A DNA stretch of 64,000 bases. Origin: a virus. Lineage: Duplodnaviria; Caudoviricetes. The notes beneath the pieces were generated by a model. It was not told the origin of the DNA, did no database searches, and saw only the letters and a program-made list of their open reading frames with translations. The stretch lies in IMG/VR virus record IMGVR_UViG_3300017909_001210, positions 15,614 to 79,613 of that record; one strand, written 5' to 3'. This document shows, piece after piece, positions 15,607-59,067 of the stretch; within the stretch, counting starts at the first letter, position 1, and each line of letters starts with the position of its first letter. Both the position numbers and the translations under genes were made by a program.

Positions 15607-16170
15607 ATGAACGCATTAATTTATACAGAAGACAGTAAACTTATAGTCCGAAAGGAAAATGGTTTACAATATGATTTTGAAAACGTAGATAGACCTGAAT
15701 TGGGTTTTGACTTTGACGTATTAGTTTATGACGATGTTGAAGTTAAGATTTTAAAATGGGAAGACGGAAAACAATTTGACGAACAAGAACATACTGCATT
15801 GACAGAAGAAGACAGACTTAGTATTGAAACATATATCAAAAATTCTGAACCACCTTTGGGATATAATTTAAATCAACAATATATCAATCAATTGGAACAA
15901 CTTGTGTTAGATTATCAAACACAATGTTCTGAATTGTATGGAATGTATGATTTATTATATGCAAATGTAGCTGGAAGAGAAGGGTCAAATCACCCTAGAC
16001 GTTCTGATGCAAGAAGAGCATTAGAATATTTTGATAACATATGGTTTTGTTTTGAAAATGTGGTTGCAGAAATTCAACAAACAAGAGAAGATACTTTAAA
16101 GAGTTTTGACCACTATGCTGGTGCAATTCCCGACCCTTTAGTGACTCCCGACTCTAGGTCAAATAGGTAA
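15607..16170 (+). CDS. Hypothetical protein, tail-fibre-assembly/chaperone-like C-terminus
   Basis: YDLLYANVAG...NHPRRSDARRALEYFDNIW resembles the YDxIxxAxxY...HP...EA...WxDxVW pattern of phage fibre-associated proteins. Confidence 0.4.
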   Translation: MNALIYTEDSKLIVRKENGLQYDFENVDRPELGFDFDVLVYDDVEVKILKWEDGKQFDEQEHTALTEEDRLSIETYIKNSEPPLGYNLNQQYINQLEQLVLDYQTQCSELYGMYDLLYANVAGREGSNHPRRSDARRALEYFDNIWFCFENVVAEIQQTREDTLKSFDHYAGAIPDPLVTPDSRSNR

Positions 16171-52041: not shown

Positions 52042-52064
52042 TTAGTTGACAAAAAATCATTTTA

Positions 52065-52086
52065 GGGGGACAGTGTCCCCCTTTTT
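52065..52086 (+). terminator. Rho-independent terminator
   Basis: GGGGGAC-AGT-GTCCCCC-TTTTT. Confidence 0.8.
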
Positions 52087-52088
52087 AT

Positions 52089-52096
52089 TATAAATA
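52089..52096 (+). promoter_or_regulatory. T4-type late promoter heading the curli-like operon
   Basis: Exact TATAAATA just after the terminator, 6 nt before ATG 52103. Confidence 0.75.
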
Positions 52097-52102
52097 GAAG
52101 GT

Positions 52103-52399
52103 ATGGAAGAAGTATTTAATTTGATAGGTGACGTTGGAGTTCCCATTGCAATGGCATTAGTAATGGGATTCTTTATATTCATGGTCATCAAACAAATCTT
52201 CGAAGGAATAGTCGATAATATAAAGACACTTACAATGTTTTGTGAATCGTTAGAAAATCGTGCAAGAACAATGTCTAACGAAATGATAAAGATTGATATG
52301 CTAGTGTCAAGTGCATTAGAGTTAAGACCTGATATAGAGAGAGTTGCAAGAGCAGAGAACTTTATAGAAGACGGGAAACTTGATGTAAGAAGGGATTAA
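52103..52399 (+). CDS. Single-TM membrane protein with coiled coil
   Basis: DVGVPIAMALVMGFFIFMVI TM. Confidence 0.6.
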   Translation: MEEVFNLIGDVGVPIAMALVMGFFIFMVIKQIFEGIVDNIKTLTMFCESLENRARTMSNEMIKIDMLVSSALELRPDIERVARAENFIEDGKLDVRRD

Positions 52400-52400
52400 C

Positions 52401-52685
52401 ATGGAAGCCGAAGTCCCCTTAATTGTCGAACTAATAACCGATTACGGATTCCCAGTTGTTATGATGGTAGGACTAGGATATTTCGTATATTATGTATGGT
52501 GGTTTATTGGTGAAAAGATAGACCCCGAAATTGAAAAAATGCATTTTGCACTAATCCGAGTAATTGACCAAACTAGAATGTTAGACCAAGACCTCATACG
52601 TCTTAAAGAAAAAGTTGACGTAGTTCTAGAATATCGTGAAAATGAAAAGAAAAAGATTTCGGCTAAAACCATTAATAATGATTAA
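52401..52685 (+). CDS. Single-TM membrane protein with coiled coil (paralogue-like of the previous gene)
   Basis: DYGFPVVMMVGLGYFVYYVW TM. Confidence 0.6.
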   Translation: MEAEVPLIVELITDYGFPVVMMVGLGYFVYYVWWFIGEKIDPEIEKMHFALIRVIDQTRMLDQDLIRLKEKVDVVLEYRENEKKKISAKTINND

Positions 52686-53175
52686 ATATATTTTACCAAT
52701 TTGTTTTATTTCAATTTTACTATCATTCCAAGTTCACGGAACAGAGATAGTTCACAAGTTTAAAAACCCTTCATTCTCAGGTATCGGAACGGGTGCTCAT
52801 TATCTTACAATTGAGAACCAAGAGTCTAGCCGTAAGAAAGCAATAGAGGACGCATTAGAATCTGCAAGGAAAGCAGCTGAGAGAGAAGCAGAGAATACAA
52901 CCCTAGCAAAATTTATTAGGAACCTCGAAAGCAGAATTTACGCACAATTTGCAAAACAATTAGTTGAATCAATGTTTGCAAATGATAATCCTGCTGGTTT
53001 CGGGTCATTCATATTAGAAGGAAACACTATAACATGGGAAGTAGTCACCGATGAAACGGGTGCTGAGTTTATTAAACTTACAGTTGTTGCAGAGGACGGA
53101 ACTTCTACAGTTATAGAAATCCCAGTCGGAACGGGTAATTTTGCTCAAGACCCTGATGGTGGTTCAGGTGGTTAA
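52678..53175 (+). CDS. csgF: Curli assembly protein CsgF-like
   Basis: Signal peptide, then EIVHKFKNPSFSG...HYLTIENQE matching the CsgF N-terminal (LxFxFxNPxFGG) peptide; probable start ATG 52678. Confidence 0.75.
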   Translation: MIKYILPICFISILLSFQVHGTEIVHKFKNPSFSGIGTGAHYLTIENQESSRKKAIEDALESARKAAEREAENTTLAKFIRNLESRIYAQFAKQLVESMFANDNPAGFGSFILEGNTITWEVVTDETGAEFIKLTVVAEDGTSTVIEIPVGTGNFAQDPDGGSGG

Positions 53176-54070
53176 GTATTTACTTGCACTAACCCTTCTA
53201 ATAAGTGGTTGTGCGTCAGTCCCAAAGTTCACGGAAACACCCCAAGATTGTAGAAACTGGGAACAAGGTGTCCGTAAGGATATGATAACTGGAATTAAGA
53301 AACCAGTCACAAGAGATTATATTTGTGTAGAGTTTCCCGAAGTTGTCAAATTACCTTCGTATGTAGAGTTATTAAACCTTCCACCTGCGGAAGAACGACC
53401 AATTGTTGCAGTATATACTTTTAACGATAAAACTGGTCAAAGAAAAGCAAGAGAGGGAATCGCAGACTTCTCGACTGCAGTCACCCAAGGTGGTGTCGAA
53501 ATGGTTATCGATGCACTTAAGACTGCTGGAGGTGGAACTTGGTTTAGAGTTGTAGAACGAAATGGAATCGATGCGTTGGTTCGAGAAAGACAAATCATTC
53601 GTTCTGCAAGACAAGATTTTGCGAAAATTTCAGGGGAAGACCCCAAAGGAGTTCAACCATTATTATTTGCTGGAATTATAATTGAAGGTGGAATAATAGG
53701 GTATGATACTAATATTCAAACTGGAGGCTCAGGCGCAAGAACCCTCGGTATTGGATTTAGTCAACAATATCGTCAAGATGTTGTGACCATTTCAATGAGA
53801 GCAGTTAGTGTTCTCACTGGAGAGGTATTACTTAATGTTCAAACTCGGAAGTCTATACTATCCGTTGGTGGAGGTGGTGACATATTTAAATTTGTCGAAC
53901 AAGGAACCCAACTAGTAGAGATTGAAGACGGAGTGGGAAATAATGAATCAGTGACTTACGCAGTAAGGACTGCTATTGAAGCAGCCGTGCTGGAATTAGT
54001 ATACCAAGGCCATGAACGTGGTTATTGGAAAATAAAAGAGGTAGAAAACGAAAATGAAGAAACTAATTAG
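53141..54070 (+). CDS. csgG: Curli secretion pore lipoprotein CsgG-like
   Basis: Lipobox LLISGC; VAVYTFNDKTGQRK...STAVTQG...WFRVVERNGIDALVRERQIIR...IIEGGIIGYDTN; true start possibly GTG 53168. Confidence 0.9.
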   Translation: MLKTLMVVQVVKYLLALTLLISGCASVPKFTETPQDCRNWEQGVRKDMITGIKKPVTRDYICVEFPEVVKLPSYVELLNLPPAEERPIVAVYTFNDKTGQRKAREGIADFSTAVTQGGVEMVIDALKTAGGGTWFRVVERNGIDALVRERQIIRSARQDFAKISGEDPKGVQPLLFAGIIIEGGIIGYDTNIQTGGSGARTLGIGFSQQYRQDVVTISMRAVSVLTGEVLLNVQTRKSILSVGGGGDIFKFVEQGTQLVEIEDGVGNNESVTYAVRTAIEAAVLELVYQGHERGYWKIKEVENENEETN

Positions 54071-54794
54071 TTTAGGATTATTATCCTTAATGTCGACAAC
54101 ATTCCTTTTCGCACAAGCCACTGATGACAATGAAATCAAGATTACACAAACTGGTGACACTCTTGATTTATACATAGACCAAATTGGATTCGGTAATAAG
54201 ATAGGGGGAGATAATGGGTCTTCGGGTTCACTATCTGCAATGAGTATTACTGGTTCTACTTTGGACTTTGATTTGGATTTTACAGGAAATAGCAACGTCC
54301 TATTCGGGCCAGTTGTTGCTGATAGTTCTGTTTATAAGTTAGACTTCACTGGAGATTCTAACAGTATAGACTGGAATATTGGATACCTAGGAAGTGCAGA
54401 TTCATCAGACATAAACTTTGACGTGACTGGAAGTAGTAATACTTTCGACCTCGACCAAGGTTATTTCTTTAGTGCAGAAAGGTTAGACGCAGACTTAATA
54501 CTAATCGGTAGTTCAAATGTTTTTGACGTTGATTGGGAAAGTGACGATATAACTTGGAACTTCGATATTACTGGAGGTTCTAACAATGTTAATACATTAC
54601 AAAACGATGGTGAACAGTCTTTAACGTTTACACTTAACGGAGATAGTGCAGACGTAGACATAAACCAAATTTCAGGAACTTGTGCAGCTTCCGTGACTGG
54701 TTGCTCATCACCTGATGCAATTATTACATTGGATATAACAAGTGACAATGCAACAATTCAAATCAATCAAAAAGATTCATCTAGCGATTCTTAA
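54054..54794 (+). CDS. Secreted curlin-repeat-like protein (CsgA/CsgB-like)
   Basis: Signal peptide; NEIKITQTG, DQIGFGN and recurrent TG-x-SN turns about every 23-28 aa. Confidence 0.6.
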   Translation: MKKLISLGLLSLMSTTFLFAQATDDNEIKITQTGDTLDLYIDQIGFGNKIGGDNGSSGSLSAMSITGSTLDFDLDFTGNSNVLFGPVVADSSVYKLDFTGDSNSIDWNIGYLGSADSSDINFDVTGSSNTFDLDQGYFFSAERLDADLILIGSSNVFDVDWESDDITWNFDITGGSNNVNTLQNDGEQSLTFTLNGDSADVDINQISGTCAASVTGCSSPDAIITLDITSDNATIQINQKDSSSDS

Positions 54795-55896
54795 TTTGTT
54801 GTTATTCAGTGGGGTTGCATTCAGTGACCCCATTGGAGATATCGTAGAGTCTATCGGACTCGGAAAAATTACACGTCAAAATACAGATTTCATATCACCT
54901 GAAGTAGGTTATGATATTGAATTGTATGACGTTGCAGAAACAGTAAACGGAAGAATGAAGATTGAGTTCTTGGACGAAGAAGAACTTGATTTAATTGAAC
55001 ACACTATCGTATACATTGACGAAGTGTATTATGACCCCAATCCGTCCAAATCAAAAATGGCTATGAGAATGGTTCAAGGGACGGCACGATTTGCTTCAGG
55101 TCAAGGTAAAAAAATAAAGAAAGCAAATATAGACATATCAACACCGACAGCACAAATTGCAATTAACGGAACAGATTTCACAACTACAGTTGACGAGCTA
55201 GGAAGAACACTCGTTATACTTTTGCCTGACGAAGACGGAATTACACCTTCAGGTGAGATTAGAGTTTATAATGAAGGAGGTGAAACTATACTGAATAAGG
55301 CATATCAAGCAACAATGGTATCAAGTGTTGACCAACCACCAACAGGTTCAGTAGTAATTAATAACCTAACAACTTCAATGATTGACAATATGTTTATCGT
55401 CAATCCACCAACAGAGATTAAAGAACAAATAGAAGAGGAAGCACAAGACGACCAAAATCAAGACCAAGGAATACTAGACGTAGACTTCTTAGAATTCAAT
55501 GAGTTAGAAGGAGATGCACTTGAAGATACACTTGAAGACGACTTCACTGAATTAGATATAGACTTACTAGACGTAGACTTTCTCACCGATTTACTAGACG
55601 TAGTAGAGGAATTAGAAAGGACAACAGTTAAATTAGGAGATGCACAAAAGAAAGGTGGTGCTGGTGACTTTGATTTACAAGGTGCCGTGATAGGATTTAA
55701 CAAAGATTCACAATATAATGTTTTTGTGCAAGACGGAGATTTATATCTTTTCAGAAATGTAAATGGTGTGATTGAAATTATCATTACACAAGGTGGAAGT
55801 GGATTTATTGAAACAAATGTCGAAGGTTATCAGGGTATCATAGAATTCGGAAATGGTGACCCAAGTATACGTATCTTTATCAATCAATCCAACTAA
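54742..55896 (+). CDS. FecR-domain periplasmic protein with acidic C-terminal region
   Basis: Signal peptide; ETVNGRMKIEFLDEEELDLIEHT and ISTPTAQIAINGTDF FecR-type motifs. Confidence 0.75.
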   Translation: MTMQQFKSIKKIHLAILNLLLFSGVAFSDPIGDIVESIGLGKITRQNTDFISPEVGYDIELYDVAETVNGRMKIEFLDEEELDLIEHTIVYIDEVYYDPNPSKSKMAMRMVQGTARFASGQGKKIKKANIDISTPTAQIAINGTDFTTTVDELGRTLVILLPDEDGITPSGEIRVYNEGGETILNKAYQATMVSSVDQPPTGSVVINNLTTSMIDNMFIVNPPTEIKEQIEEEAQDDQNQDQGILDVDFLEFNELEGDALEDTLEDDFTELDIDLLDVDFLTDLLDVVEELERTTVKLGDAQKKGGAGDFDLQGAVIGFNKDSQYNVFVQDGDLYLFRNVNGVIEIIITQGGSGFIETNVEGYQGIIEFGNGDPSIRIFINQSN

Positions 55897-55917
55897 ATAA
55901 TACATAGGAGGCAACTT

Positions 55918-56064
55918 ATGGATATTTTATCAAAAGTCTTTAAGTGGCATGAGAGAAGAACCGAATGGTGGTTAAACGAATTCGGAATTTCTCAATATCA
56001 AGCTATGTGGTTTGCATGGTGTAAAGGTATATTAACAATATTAATATTACAATGGATATTTTAA
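55918..56064 (+). CDS. Small Trp-rich membrane peptide (48 aa; below cutoff)
   Basis: SD AGGAGG; MDILSKVFKWHERRTEWWLNEFGISQYQAMWFAWCKGILTILILQWIF. Confidence 0.6.
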   Translation: MDILSKVFKWHERRTEWWLNEFGISQYQAMWFAWCKGILTILILQWIF

Positions 56065-56855
56065 AGAAAACAATTCTTTTCATAGGGATTTTAACAATCC
56101 CTATGTTTTCATATGCAGACGATAATCACGTTCATGTAGAACAAGTCAATGGTGGTGACAATGCAGACTTATCAATTGACCAAATAGGTTATAACAACCT
56201 CGTAAATTTTTCTTTCGACCACCAAAACAATACAATAGACCTCATACAAAAAGGAAACAATTTGTATTTTGGTTATACTGATACATGGGGTTCGGGTAAA
56301 AGTTGGGGTGGTGACATAGACGGATATAATAATGAAATAGAAGTTAGACAAAGATGTTCTGTCACAAGTTGTAATGATAATGATTTTGGTTTACATGTAT
56401 GGGGTAATTACAACCAAGTTGTTTTTGGTCAAGGATATGAAATCAACAACTCACTTACACCTACTTGGAATTATGACGGAACGGAGCCTGGTGGAAACTA
56501 TGTAAGATTAGATATTCATGGTGACTACAATGACTTTAAAGGAAGTCAGAAACAAGATTCGGATTCAATATATCATTCAATGACTTGGAACATTTATGGT
56601 GATTACAATGACGTATTTTCAAAACAATTGCAGAATGGTGATAAAACACTTACTGGAACAATTAACAACGATTACAATGAAGTTAGTGTAATTCAAAAAA
56701 AGACTGGAGCTCACACTGCAACAATAACATTGGACGGAACATACGGAACAGATTTAACTTTAGTTCAAACTGGAAGTGTTGCACAAACATATACACTATC
56801 TCAAACATGTAATACAATAGGTGGTTGCACTGTAAACGTCACTCAAGGTAATTAA
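56052..56855 (+). CDS. Secreted curlin-repeat protein (CsgA/CsgB-like)
   Basis: Signal peptide; repeats DQIGYNN, DGYNNEIEVRQ, WGNYNQVVFGQ, HGDYNDFKGSQ, YGDYNDVFSKQ, NNDYNEVSVIQ fit the curlin Q-x-G-x-x-N pattern. Confidence 0.7.
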   Translation: MDILKKTILFIGILTIPMFSYADDNHVHVEQVNGGDNADLSIDQIGYNNLVNFSFDHQNNTIDLIQKGNNLYFGYTDTWGSGKSWGGDIDGYNNEIEVRQRCSVTSCNDNDFGLHVWGNYNQVVFGQGYEINNSLTPTWNYDGTEPGGNYVRLDIHGDYNDFKGSQKQDSDSIYHSMTWNIYGDYNDVFSKQLQNGDKTLTGTINNDYNEVSVIQKKTGAHTATITLDGTYGTDLTLVQTGSVAQTYTLSQTCNTIGGCTVNVTQGN

Positions 56856-58705
56856 TGTATTCGTGGAAAACAGTTGTAATAACCATAGGGTTATTATTCG
56901 GTCTTAAGATATGGAATCCCTATTTCATAGAAAATATATCATGGTCTTATTTTGATTATTTACACCAATCTCAGGAAGTAGTTCAGGTAGATAATATTGT
57001 CTTAGTAGATATAGACGAACCTTCACTTGAAGTGTATGGTCAGTATCCATGGCCAAGGTCTATTTACAGGGATTTAATGTTAGACACTTCATACACTAAT
57101 ACACATGTTTTCACTCAACTCTTTAAAGAACCTGATAGATTTCAGGGTGACGAAGCATTTGCAGAAGGTTTAGTAAATCGATTATCAATTCTATCTTCTG
57201 CACCAACAGTTCAAAAAGATACTGGTTCTGCACCTTTTGTAAGAACTAGTGTTTTCGGTGGAGGAAACATAGACGACCATATATGGAGTTTCTCAGGAAT
57301 CTCTTCACCGATTCCAATATTAGAACAAAATTCATATGGTTCAGGTGTGACAATTACTACACCACCAGTCAGTGGAACTGCAAACTTTGACGGGACAGTT
57401 CGTTCTGCACCATTAATTGTTTCTGCAAATGGTGTAGTGTATCCCTCAGTTGCACTAGAAGTTTTACGTGCAATGTATGACCAACCTAATTATCAGACTC
57501 GTGTGACACCCGAAGTTGGAATCGAATGGATTCGTATTGGAAGACAACCCCCAATCGAAACCACTCCAACTGCAGATATCCTTGTAGGATATTGGAATGA
57601 TTTCGAAAGGGTGTCTGCAAAAGATTTACCAAATTCTAACCTAGAGAACAAGATTCTAATTTGGGGTCTGACGGCTGAAGGTCTGAATAATCCAGTTTCA
57701 ACCCCAGTGGGTGTAAAGTATCCCCACGAAGTTCAAGCTTCAATCCTCCACTCCGTCTCCACAGGAGTTCAAATACAACAATCCTACTATCTTGAATTCT
57801 TAGAAGTCGTTCTTCTATTGACAGTTCTTTTAGCAATATTGGTATCGGTCTACACACTTCCCACAATTTTTTCGGGGATAGTGAGTCTAGGTATCGTTGG
57901 ATTTCAGGTGGGTTTGGGTTTCTATTTGTGGACTTCAAGTTTCGTTCTTTTCGATATCTTCTACTCATCGATGGCCTCCATAATAGTGTTTGGACATGCT
58001 TCCTTCAACAAATATTATAAAACCTATCAACTCAAAGAACAAATTAAGAAGCAGTTTCAAAAGTATTTATCTCCCGACATGGTTGACCAACTTGCAGAGA
58101 ATCCTGAACTATTAAAGTTAGGTGGTGAGAGAAAAGAAATGACATTCATGTTCATGGACATATGTGGATTCACTCCAATATCAGAAGCATATAAAAATAA
58201 AGACGACCCCGAAGGATTAGTAGACTTGATAAACAAGTTCCTAGATGTCCAAACGAAGATTATCCTAAATAATAAAGGAACCATAGACAAATATATGGGT
58301 GACTGTATCATGAGTTTTTGGAATGCTCCCTTGGATTGTGAAAACCATGCAGAACTCGCCGTTAAATCCGCTCTAGAAGTATTAGAAGCAACTAAAGAAT
58401 TAAATGAAGAACTATCTCCTCTCAATCTGCCTCCTATTAATGTCGGTATCGGTATTAGCACAGGAGAATGTATTGTCGGAAACATGGGGTCAGAAGTTAG
58501 ATTTGACTATTCCGTCATTGGAGACGCCGTCAACCTCGGTGCTAGACTCGAGGGACAAACACGCAATTATGATGGGGTGGACGTGTTGTTATCGGAACGA
58601 ACTTATCAACAGTGTCCGAACAGAGCATTCACTGAAGTCGACAGAATACTTGTTAAAGGTAAATCCGAAAAGGTTCGAATATTCACACCATTGGGAACTG
58701 ACTGA
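56855..58705 (+). CDS. CHASE2-domain transmembrane class III adenylate cyclase
   Basis: VLVDIDEPSL...QYPWPRS (CHASE2), three TM helices, FMDICGFT, IDKYMGDCIM, DYSVIGDAVNLGARLEG with catalytic D/D/K/N/R present. Confidence 0.92.
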   Translation: MYSWKTVVITIGLLFGLKIWNPYFIENISWSYFDYLHQSQEVVQVDNIVLVDIDEPSLEVYGQYPWPRSIYRDLMLDTSYTNTHVFTQLFKEPDRFQGDEAFAEGLVNRLSILSSAPTVQKDTGSAPFVRTSVFGGGNIDDHIWSFSGISSPIPILEQNSYGSGVTITTPPVSGTANFDGTVRSAPLIVSANGVVYPSVALEVLRAMYDQPNYQTRVTPEVGIEWIRIGRQPPIETTPTADILVGYWNDFERVSAKDLPNSNLENKILIWGLTAEGLNNPVSTPVGVKYPHEVQASILHSVSTGVQIQQSYYLEFLEVVLLLTVLLAILVSVYTLPTIFSGIVSLGIVGFQVGLGFYLWTSSFVLFDIFYSSMASIIVFGHASFNKYYKTYQLKEQIKKQFQKYLSPDMVDQLAENPELLKLGGERKEMTFMFMDICGFTPISEAYKNKDDPEGLVDLINKFLDVQTKIILNNKGTIDKYMGDCIMSFWNAPLDCENHAELAVKSALEVLEATKELNEELSPLNLPPINVGIGISTGECIVGNMGSEVRFDYSVIGDAVNLGARLEGQTRNYDGVDVLLSERTYQQCPNRAFTEVDRILVKGKSEKVRIFTPLGTD

Positions 58706-59009
58706 CCCACCTTCAACAGCAGATTGGACATTATTCATTTTTTTACAAGTCGCAGATATCTACACAACTTATCGTGGACTAAAATACGAATGCGTAGAAG
58801 AAGCAAATCCATTGTTTGGTAAAAATCCAACAGTTGAAACTATGGCAATGTATAAGTTTGCATTGTTGACACCAGCAATTCAATACGACAGAAAACATGG
58901 TAATTTAAATAAGGCATCTATGAGAGGAAATAATACATTTATGATGTTTATTATAGGCAATAATCTAAATGTATTGGAAAGGGCAGAAAATAGATGTAAC
59001 AAAAGATAA
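58404..59009 (+). CDS. Secreted/membrane protein (DUF5658-like C-terminus) overlapping the cyclase 3' end
   Basis: Signal-peptide-like MKNYLLSICLLLMSVSVLA; C-terminal LQVADIYTTYRGL...EANPLFG; start uncertain. Confidence 0.55.
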   Translation: MKNYLLSICLLLMSVSVLAQENVLSETWGQKLDLTIPSLETPSTSVLDSRDKHAIMMGWTCCYRNELINSVRTEHSLKSTEYLLKVNPKRFEYSHHWELTDPPSTADWTLFIFLQVADIYTTYRGLKYECVEEANPLFGKNPTVETMAMYKFALLTPAIQYDRKHGNLNKASMRGNNTFMMFIIGNNLNVLERAENRCNKR

Positions 59010-59059: not shown

Positions 59060-59067
59060 TATAAATA
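59060..59067 (+). promoter_or_regulatory. Late promoter TATAAATA overlapping a sigma70-like TTGAAA-18-TATAAT (59029-59058)
   Basis: Both consensus elements are visible upstream of hsp20. Confidence 0.6.

Follow-up and report, generated by a model that had tools for sequence, protein, structure and literature searches.

Curli, FecR and CHASE2 receptor adenylate cyclase genes in one conserved cluster of marine T4-like phages

A receptor cyclase gene in a phage curli cluster

Why should phages bring along a secretion system, amyloid-like subunits and a receptor cyclase, none of which is present in their known hosts? The question has been raised in three papers, and it is posed again by a 64-kb stretch of phage DNA (which we refer to as the window, meaning all 64,000 nucleotides analysed, positions 15,614 to 79,613 of the 79.6-kb IMG/VR virus record IMGVR_UViG_3300017909_001210), in which curli, or type VIII secretion system (T8SS), genes share one cluster with genes for an exported FecR-domain protein and a CHASE2 receptor adenylate cyclase. 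The source phage is an uncultured marine T4-like myovirus; its window encodes a T4-type portal, sheath and large terminase together with CobS-like, Hsp20 and AhpC genes, and seawater, marine and reef metagenomes from several studies contain near-identical DNA. On the + strand the cluster runs CsgF, CsgG, curlin-like 1, FecR-domain protein, a 48-aa open-reading frame (ORF), curlin-like 2 and CHASE2 cyclase, the genes overlapping or abutting, and this seven-gene order, which a preliminary description had read from the bare sequence, was borne out by the ORF listing and Pfam, with curlin 2 identified by hhalign:

52636–53175, + strand: CsgF-like protein (Pfam CsgF, E 2.4e-11; likely start ATG 52678)
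53141–54070, + strand: CsgG outer-membrane lipoprotein channel (Pfam CsgG, E 2e-49; lipobox LISGC)
54054–54794, + strand: curlin-repeat subunit 1, 246 aa, with signal peptide (Pfam Curlin_rpt, 6.5e-5)
54742–55896, + strand: exported FecR-domain protein (Pfam FecR, 7e-8; likely start ATG 54748)
55918–56064, + strand: conserved 48-aa protein with a C-terminal hydrophobic helix (open frame kept in relatives)
56052–56855, + strand: curlin-like subunit 2, 267 aa, with signal peptide (profile match to subunit 1; DQIGYNN-type repeat)
56855–58705, + strand: CHASE2 receptor adenylate cyclase, 616 aa (Pfam CHASE2, 2e-27; Guanylate_cyc, 7e-19)

The operon is a member of an already published module of pelagiphage type VIII secretion, FecR and adenylate cyclase genes. 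The preliminary description knew of no such phage system, which was wrong, as FecR, adenylate cyclase and T8SS genes were reported in podo- and myo-pelagiphages in 2022 (mSystems; PMC9599517) and GenBank annotates the cyclase. The published cluster consists of CsgF, CsgG, a CsgA/B-like protein, FecR, a second CsgA/B-like protein and adenylate cyclase, with trees indicating an alphaproteobacterial origin and with detection reported in metatranscriptomes (PMC9599517), whilst two further papers describe the phage "curli operon" and leave cyclase and FecR unmentioned (PMC7029224, 2020; PMC9004378, 2022). The window shares with this module (GenBank KC465899 and MZ577097) its genes, their order and a T4-like marine myovirus backbone, and differs in the 48-aa membrane ORF that its sub-clade carries between FecR and curlin 2. 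The pelagiphage papers mention neither CHASE2 nor membrane topology, catalytic residues or promoter layout; to the published work we add the identity of the cyclase as a CHASE2 receptor, an independent bacterial FecR and CHASE2 module, an apparently phage-specific fusion of that module to curli genes, the layout of a putative late unit, and the recognition of three small ORFs, the one of 48 aa and two membrane ORFs further upstream, as conserved genes.

Our reading of the cluster, to which we give somewhat better than even chances, is of a late phage operon in which a minimal curli kit has been joined to an alphaproteobacterial-type pair of FecR protein and CHASE2 cyclase, through which an envelope cue would be turned into cyclic AMP (cAMP).

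The cyclase is predicted to be catalytically competent

Hydropathy places a first transmembrane segment at residues ~7–25 of the cyclase, followed by a ~290-residue extracytoplasmic CHASE2 domain (the Pfam match spans residues 14–327), a hydrophobic transmembrane block at ~310–392, seen as a block rather than as single helices, and a cytoplasmic cyclase domain at 427–605. In the CHASE2 receptor family the second transmembrane block consists of three helices. The catalytic domain aligns over its full length with the solved class III cyclases 6fht, 2w01 (Cya2) and 3r5g (CyaB), with E-values of 1e-30 to 1e-35, and all seven residues of the catalytic set are present: D435, K479, D483, S553, N560, R564 and K603. 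Four positions do not vary across 80 viral homologues (80/80): D435 and D483, which bind metal, K479, which specifies adenine, and the transition-state residue R564; the phosphate-binding K603 is kept in 79 and the transition-state N560 in 78, whilst position 553 is Ser in 73, Thr in five and Asp in two. The full ATP-type set, including the Lys, that the preliminary description had recognised is thus present. The sequence indicates an intact receptor adenylate cyclase that is kept by purifying selection and belongs to the class IIIb adenylate-specific type, and cAMP synthesis is predicted. In phage Melnitz (MZ577097) the cyclase reads GDSVSTAARIE at the N560 equivalent, and the activity of that enzyme may differ.

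The FecR-domain protein is exported and carries a phage-specific C-terminal domain

The FecR-like protein has a cleavable-type signal peptide immediately before its FecR domain and no other Pfam domain. Its AlphaFold2 model shows a confident N-terminal beta-sandwich (~30–215), an acidic disordered linker of ~80 residues and a small C-terminal beta domain. The N-terminal domain resembles the PupR CCSSD (6ovk_R, Foldseek E 4e-4) and also a Bacteroidales anti-sigma periplasmic domain (4m0h), so that the phage protein has the FecR/PupR periplasmic signalling fold of the FecA–FecR–FecI and PupB–PupR systems; it differs from them in the rest of the apparatus, as neither an N-terminal cytoplasmic anti-sigma domain nor a membrane-spanning anchor beyond the signal peptide was found in the protein, and neither an extracytoplasmic function (ECF) sigma factor (FecI) nor a TonB-dependent transducer in the operon. 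With no anti-sigma domain, nearby ECF sigma factor or TonB-dependent transducer, we regard it as an exported FecR-domain protein and not as a FecR-type anti-sigma regulator. Weak Sigma70_r2 matches lie elsewhere in related phage genomes, distant from the cluster, and possibly mark, we assume, a phage late sigma factor.

Only the N-terminal domain is common to the bacterial relatives, the C-terminal domain being phage-specific. Folded alone, the latter reached a pLDDT of 83 and had no structural relative in Foldseek (best PDB E 0.3); a match of the full model to a "cell surface anchoring domain" (5ix9) was dropped, as it was not reproduced with the C-terminal domain alone. Aligned by hhalign with the two curlins, this domain gave weak probabilities of 49% and 2%. 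NCBIfam also gives a match of the FecR-like protein to Lsa33, a surface adhesin of Leptospira that has a FecR domain. A complex prediction of the FecR-like protein (29–384) with CHASE2 (22–316) scored 0.00 from alignments of 31 rows and counts neither way.

The gene order is conserved in phages

We surveyed 80 IMG/VR contigs carrying a cyclase homologue at 40–96% identity. The whole order CsgF, CsgG, curlin, FecR, (curlin), cyclase was found in 43 of them, among them every contig with at least 5.3 kb upstream bar one (L119), the other contigs ending too early; this recurrence lies far beyond chance. FecR and cyclase always occur together in the myovirus clusters, and in the window just the 48-aa ORF and curlin 2 separate the two genes. 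The gene order is also that of the nearest deposited phages, Pelagibacter phage HTVC008M and Methylophilales phage Melnitz, whose cyclases are 40.7% and 34.8% identical to that of the window; their GenBank records already label the last gene of the cluster as adenylate/guanylate cyclase, and that of Melnitz also annotates a FecR-domain protein.

The full phage cluster also occurs on six contigs deposited as parts of bacterial metagenome-assembled genomes (MAGs) labelled Sphingobacteriales, Synechococcus, Flavobacteriaceae, Pirellulales and Saprospiraceae. One of them, the 121-kb JAAXIF010000105.1, shares 97–98% identity with the window. These are evidently phage contigs that were mis-binned into bacterial genomes.

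FecR and CHASE2 cyclase form an independent bacterial module

Both halves of the phage cluster are of bacterial ancestry, and in bacteria they were found apart. The pairing of FecR-domain proteins with CHASE2 sensors in bacteria, stated in the preliminary description, holds in published loci (PMC9239204, PMC5192318, PMC5498481) and in our own scans: a CHASE2 cyclase lies in the flank of 30 of 75 FecR-centred loci, and among 80 cyclase-centred loci (two of which resemble phage fragments) FecR is present in 23, a Crp-type regulator in 14 and a TPR protein in 13. In about two-thirds of the 30 loci the gap between FecR and cyclase is below 450 bp, and elsewhere a TPR or Crp gene stands between them. 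All 30 encode a protein of ~480–600 aa with N-terminal TPR repeats and a C-terminal, Slam-like outer-membrane barrel, as judged from TPR_19 in 24 of 25 members, SlipAM in six, TPR_Slam in five and a C-terminal aromatic beta-signal (e.g. KRWEF) in 24 of 28; by profile this protein accompanies FecR in 60 of the 75 loci. Clustering found a Crp-type regulator that binds cyclic nucleotide monophosphates (cNMP) in 9 of the 30 loci, and profile search found one in 12 of the 75. FecR and CHASE2 cyclase are thus an independent bacterial module, which travels with a TPR/outer-membrane-barrel protein and often with a Crp regulator.

Neither CsgG nor CsgF occurs in any of the FecR-centred or cyclase-centred loci, and the ten closest bacterial loci of a CsgG-centred scan (CsgG identity 39–48%) have the CsgF–CsgG–curlin layout of the phage with no FecR or CHASE2. 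A survey of whether the cyclase and FecR genes are linked to csg genes in other genomes, proposed in the preliminary description, therefore has a divided outcome: the linkage recurs in phages, in the 43 contigs given above, and fails in bacteria, where the module stands beside csg genes in 0 of 163 loci. Set against the conserved linkage in phages, this absence makes the fusion to curli genes appear phage-specific.

Three published settings come close to the phage pair. Campylobacterota have their CHASE2 cyclases in gene clusters that also encode a phosphodiesterase, a TPR protein and a FecR-domain protein (PMC9239204); in S. meliloti, the locus clr-cyaD1-smc02177-smc02178 places a CHASE2 cyclase (cyaD1) beside a FecR-domain gene (smc02177; PMC5498481), removal of CHASE2 renders CyaD1 constitutive, and activation requires the outer-membrane protein NsrA (PMC5498481, PMC13001267, PMC7529298). 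Both share with the phage a gene for an exported FecR-domain protein beside a class III CHASE2 cyclase of equal architecture, whereas the phage lacks a TPR/outer-membrane-barrel partner and a Crp-type reader (TPR and Crp profiles match neither the window nor any phage locus) as well as the phosphodiesterase, at which no search was aimed; csg genes take their place, and the FecR protein of the phage adds the phage-specific C-terminal domain. The Burkholderia BiofilmReg operon comprises a response regulator, a LysM and FecR protein, a CHASE2 histidine kinase and DUF4136 (PMC5192318); it likewise combines a periplasmic FecR-domain protein with a CHASE2 sensor and is tied to biofilm and surface behaviour, but its output is a histidine kinase, its FecR protein carries LysM and it has no curli genes. 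The adjacency of FecR and CHASE2 across many bacterial lineages, with both cyclase and kinase outputs, points to a functional FecR–CHASE2 pair.

Eight low-GC (31–35%) marine alphaproteobacterial contigs, from single-amplified genomes and MAGs, carry the order Crp, CHASE2 cyclase, (Crp), FecR, a layout which suggests that streamlined marine bacteria own a native sensor module together with its reader. On two SAR86 single-cell contigs lies a CHASE2 cyclase gene whose product shares ~35% identity with that of the phage, with no FecR neighbour in one of them (L193). A cNMP-binding match is present in 309 of 401 alphaproteobacterial genomes, one of them unpublished, in a class-level tally that bears no taxon labels and is silent on Pelagibacterales.

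The curli genes make up a minimal kit

The CsgF-like protein has a signal peptide followed by a TEIVHKFKNPSFSG N-terminus. Curlin 1 scores 23.2 bits against Curlin_rpt, above the cutoff of 20.7, and has weak NCBIfam matches to CsgA/CsgB; curlin 2 gave no match in the Pfam search, and its family profile aligns with that of curlin 1 at 99.7% probability (hhalign, E 1e-25). The phage thus resembles the curli systems of E. coli and of Alphaproteobacteria in its CsgG lipoprotein, CsgF and signal-peptide-bearing curlin-repeat subunits. It differs from them in lacking CsgE (no CsgE-like Pfam match in the operon), CsgC and CsgD, and the bacterial csg loci examined, for their part, are without FecR or CHASE2 cyclase. 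The C-termini of curlin 1, the FecR-like protein and curlin 2 close with a similar motif, phi-x-phi-[NT]-Q-x-[ND] (54770–54794, 55870–55896 and 56829–56855), which is kept in relatives and could be a common secretion or templating signal.

The cluster looks like a single late transcription unit

Upstream of CsgF and at the far end of the cluster the following features were found:

52064–52082, + strand: intrinsic-terminator-like hairpin, a GC-rich 8-bp stem followed by a T run, closing the upstream unit
52089–52096, + strand: T4-type late promoter motif TATAAATA, the putative start of the operon
52103–52399, + strand: conserved small membrane protein, 98 aa, first gene of the unit (65 tblastn matches in related viral loci)
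52401–52685, + strand: conserved small membrane protein, 94 aa, with one hydrophobic helix (59 tblastn matches)
58404–59009, + strand: downstream ORF, 201 aa (weak DUF5658 Pfam match, E 1.6e-5; membership of the unit uncertain)

The motif at 52089 directly follows the strong terminator, and its next copy lies at 59060, ahead of hsp20. The window holds 15 copies, between 5351 and 59060 and all on the + strand, where 5.6 would be expected, and in 23 of 37 relatives, Melnitz included, a copy lies within 1.5 kb upstream of CsgF, mostly ~530–600 nt upstream. From this layout the cluster looks like a single late transcription unit. Most copies in the window stand just 5' of structural or other late-looking genes, which fits T4-type late promoters.

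RNA-library contigs from four salt-marsh metatranscriptome runs (four study codes, which may belong to one campaign) match parts of the operon at 92–99% identity, one of them, 1.2 kb long, running from the 3' end of FecR to the start of the cyclase. As DNA carry-over is possible and contigs cannot show transcript ends, this cover is a weak hint of transcription, and operon stretches left uncovered carry no meaning.

The two small membrane ORFs between the promoter motif and CsgF are paralogues of one another and are conserved across relatives. The pelagiphage papers place a "histidine kinase" upstream of the cluster, and the two ORFs may be the genes so named (PMC9599517), but they have no Pfam family, no kinase domain was found in either even at E-values up to 5, and a kinase is thus unconfirmed here. 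By its conservation the 48-aa ORF within the cluster is a real gene, its frame being open at the equivalent position in more than 20 related contigs (37–94% identity) with a conserved pattern. It is confined to the phage sub-clade nearest the window and is absent from HTVC008M-like and Melnitz-like clusters. The ORF at 58404–59009, which precedes the copy of the motif at 59060, has a signal-peptide-like start and overlaps the last 300 nt of the cyclase gene in another frame.

A putative envelope sensor and its alternatives

If the cluster is a curli kit fused to a sensor pair, then one module would consist of CsgF, the CsgG outer-membrane channel and two curlin-repeat subunits, and the other would pair a FecR-domain protein, exported by Sec, with a cyclase of the inner membrane whose CHASE2 domain faces the periplasm and whose class IIIb domain lies in the cytoplasm. 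Late in infection the phage would install a secretion channel and fibre subunits in a host that has none (known hosts of the related phages are without curli, according to the pelagiphage T8SS papers), the FecR-like protein would sit in the periplasm or outer envelope as a co-sensor or modulator of the CHASE2 domain, and the cyclase would turn an envelope cue into cAMP inside the infected cell. As no cyclic-nucleotide receptor is found among the phage genes, host proteins would have to read such a signal. A relay from FecR to CHASE2 that makes cAMP is plausible. The contact between FecR and CHASE2, the kind of cue and its consequences downstream are all inferred, and several points weigh against this account: perception of the signal that activates CyaD1/D2/K does not require smc02177, the FecR-domain gene of S. 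meliloti (PMC5498481); no cNMP-binding domain (PF00027) occurs in five related phage records, two of them incomplete fragments; late timing is read from the promoter motif, and the RNA-library contigs hint at transcription weakly; and Ser replaces the transition-state Asn in two of the 80 cyclase homologues, Melnitz included.

What, then, would be the sensor? In bacteria the FecR-like gene mostly stands with an outer-membrane TPR and barrel partner (the 60 of 75 loci above), whereas every phage locus has csg genes instead, and with the bacterial partner missing and csg genes in its place, comparison lends some support to the idea of the preliminary description that curli act as the sensor. On this view the CsgG/CsgF channel or the curli fibre would substitute for the TPR/barrel partner, its state (fibre load, contact or a superinfecting phage) passing through the FecR-like protein to CHASE2 and into cAMP, which in the preliminary description would act through CRP on metabolism or lysis timing. 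A docking of the FecR fold on outer-membrane transducers (6ovk), the curlin-like ending of the phage-specific C-terminal domain and the genetic precedent of NsrA and CyaD1, in which an outer-membrane protein signals to a CHASE2 cyclase (PMC7529298), all speak for this arrangement, but contacts of FecR with curlin or CsgG are conjectural, a swap of genes within a cluster is no proof of a functional swap, and the C-terminal domain is without a structural relative and matches the curlins weakly; we hold this version to be possible but unlikely. We think it a little less probable again that the FecR-like protein serves the phage T8SS as an accessory for secretion or for the fibre, perhaps a CsgE-like periplasmic adaptor or a surface adhesin, and that the cyclase is an unrelated host-manipulation gene in a common operon. 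All podovirus T8SS clusters have FecR and only some have the cyclase (PMC9599517), which counts against the sensor pair and suggests that FecR may have a curli-related role of its own; the phage clusters lack CsgE, the FecR-like protein matches the Lsa33 adhesin, and bacterial FecR-like genes adjoin the Slam-like translocon even where there is no cyclase (60 of 75 loci, against 30 of 75 with one). Against a mere accessory stand the recurrent adjacency of FecR and CHASE2 in bacteria (PMC5192318, PMC9239204) and the myoviruses, which always keep both.

Two further explanations concern the cyclase itself. The published reading favours cAMP upstream of curli, as in the enterobacterial control of CsgD, with cyclase and FecR regulating expression of the phage T8SS; FecR, cyclase and T8SS genes are co-located, and in model Gammaproteobacteria csgD and curli respond to cAMP–CRP (cited in PMC9599517). 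The phages, however, have no CsgD, Crp or cNMP-binding gene, and since the cyclase is encoded last in the putative late operon that it would activate, it would be made together with the genes it should switch on. T4-type late promoters are not known to be CRP-dependent either, and we regard such regulation as very unlikely. That the domain is no adenylate cyclase in vivo, and serves as an inactive scaffold or makes another cyclic nucleotide, is an idea that we find barely credible: position 553 is Ser and not the textbook Thr or Asp, and the transition-state Asn is missing in the two homologues already named, but the metal aspartates, the adenine-specifying Lys, the Arg and the phosphate-binding Lys are invariant or nearly so, and among solved structures the nearest are adenylate cyclases that carry a Lys and Thr pair (CyaB, 3r5g).

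Implications for marine phages and their hosts

The result narrows the hypotheses and does not reveal a new kind of system. The identity of the cyclase as a CHASE2 receptor, together with an established bacterial FecR–CHASE2 pair that stands in the phage without its outer-membrane partner, makes the question of why phages carry these genes testable by reconstitution. At the speculative end, and with a probability that we put well below even, the phage has rewired a bacterial trans-envelope cAMP sensor, replacing the outer-membrane TPR-barrel protein by the curli channel and fibres and using the C-terminal domain of FecR, with its curlin-like ending, as the coupling piece. Relatives of the window phage infect some of the most abundant bacteria of the ocean, and related sequences are found in many marine metagenomes; if the rewiring is true, infected hosts that have no curli of their own would be equipped with a surface fibre made by the phage, which would also serve as an antenna and report the state of fibre or contact as cAMP late in infection.

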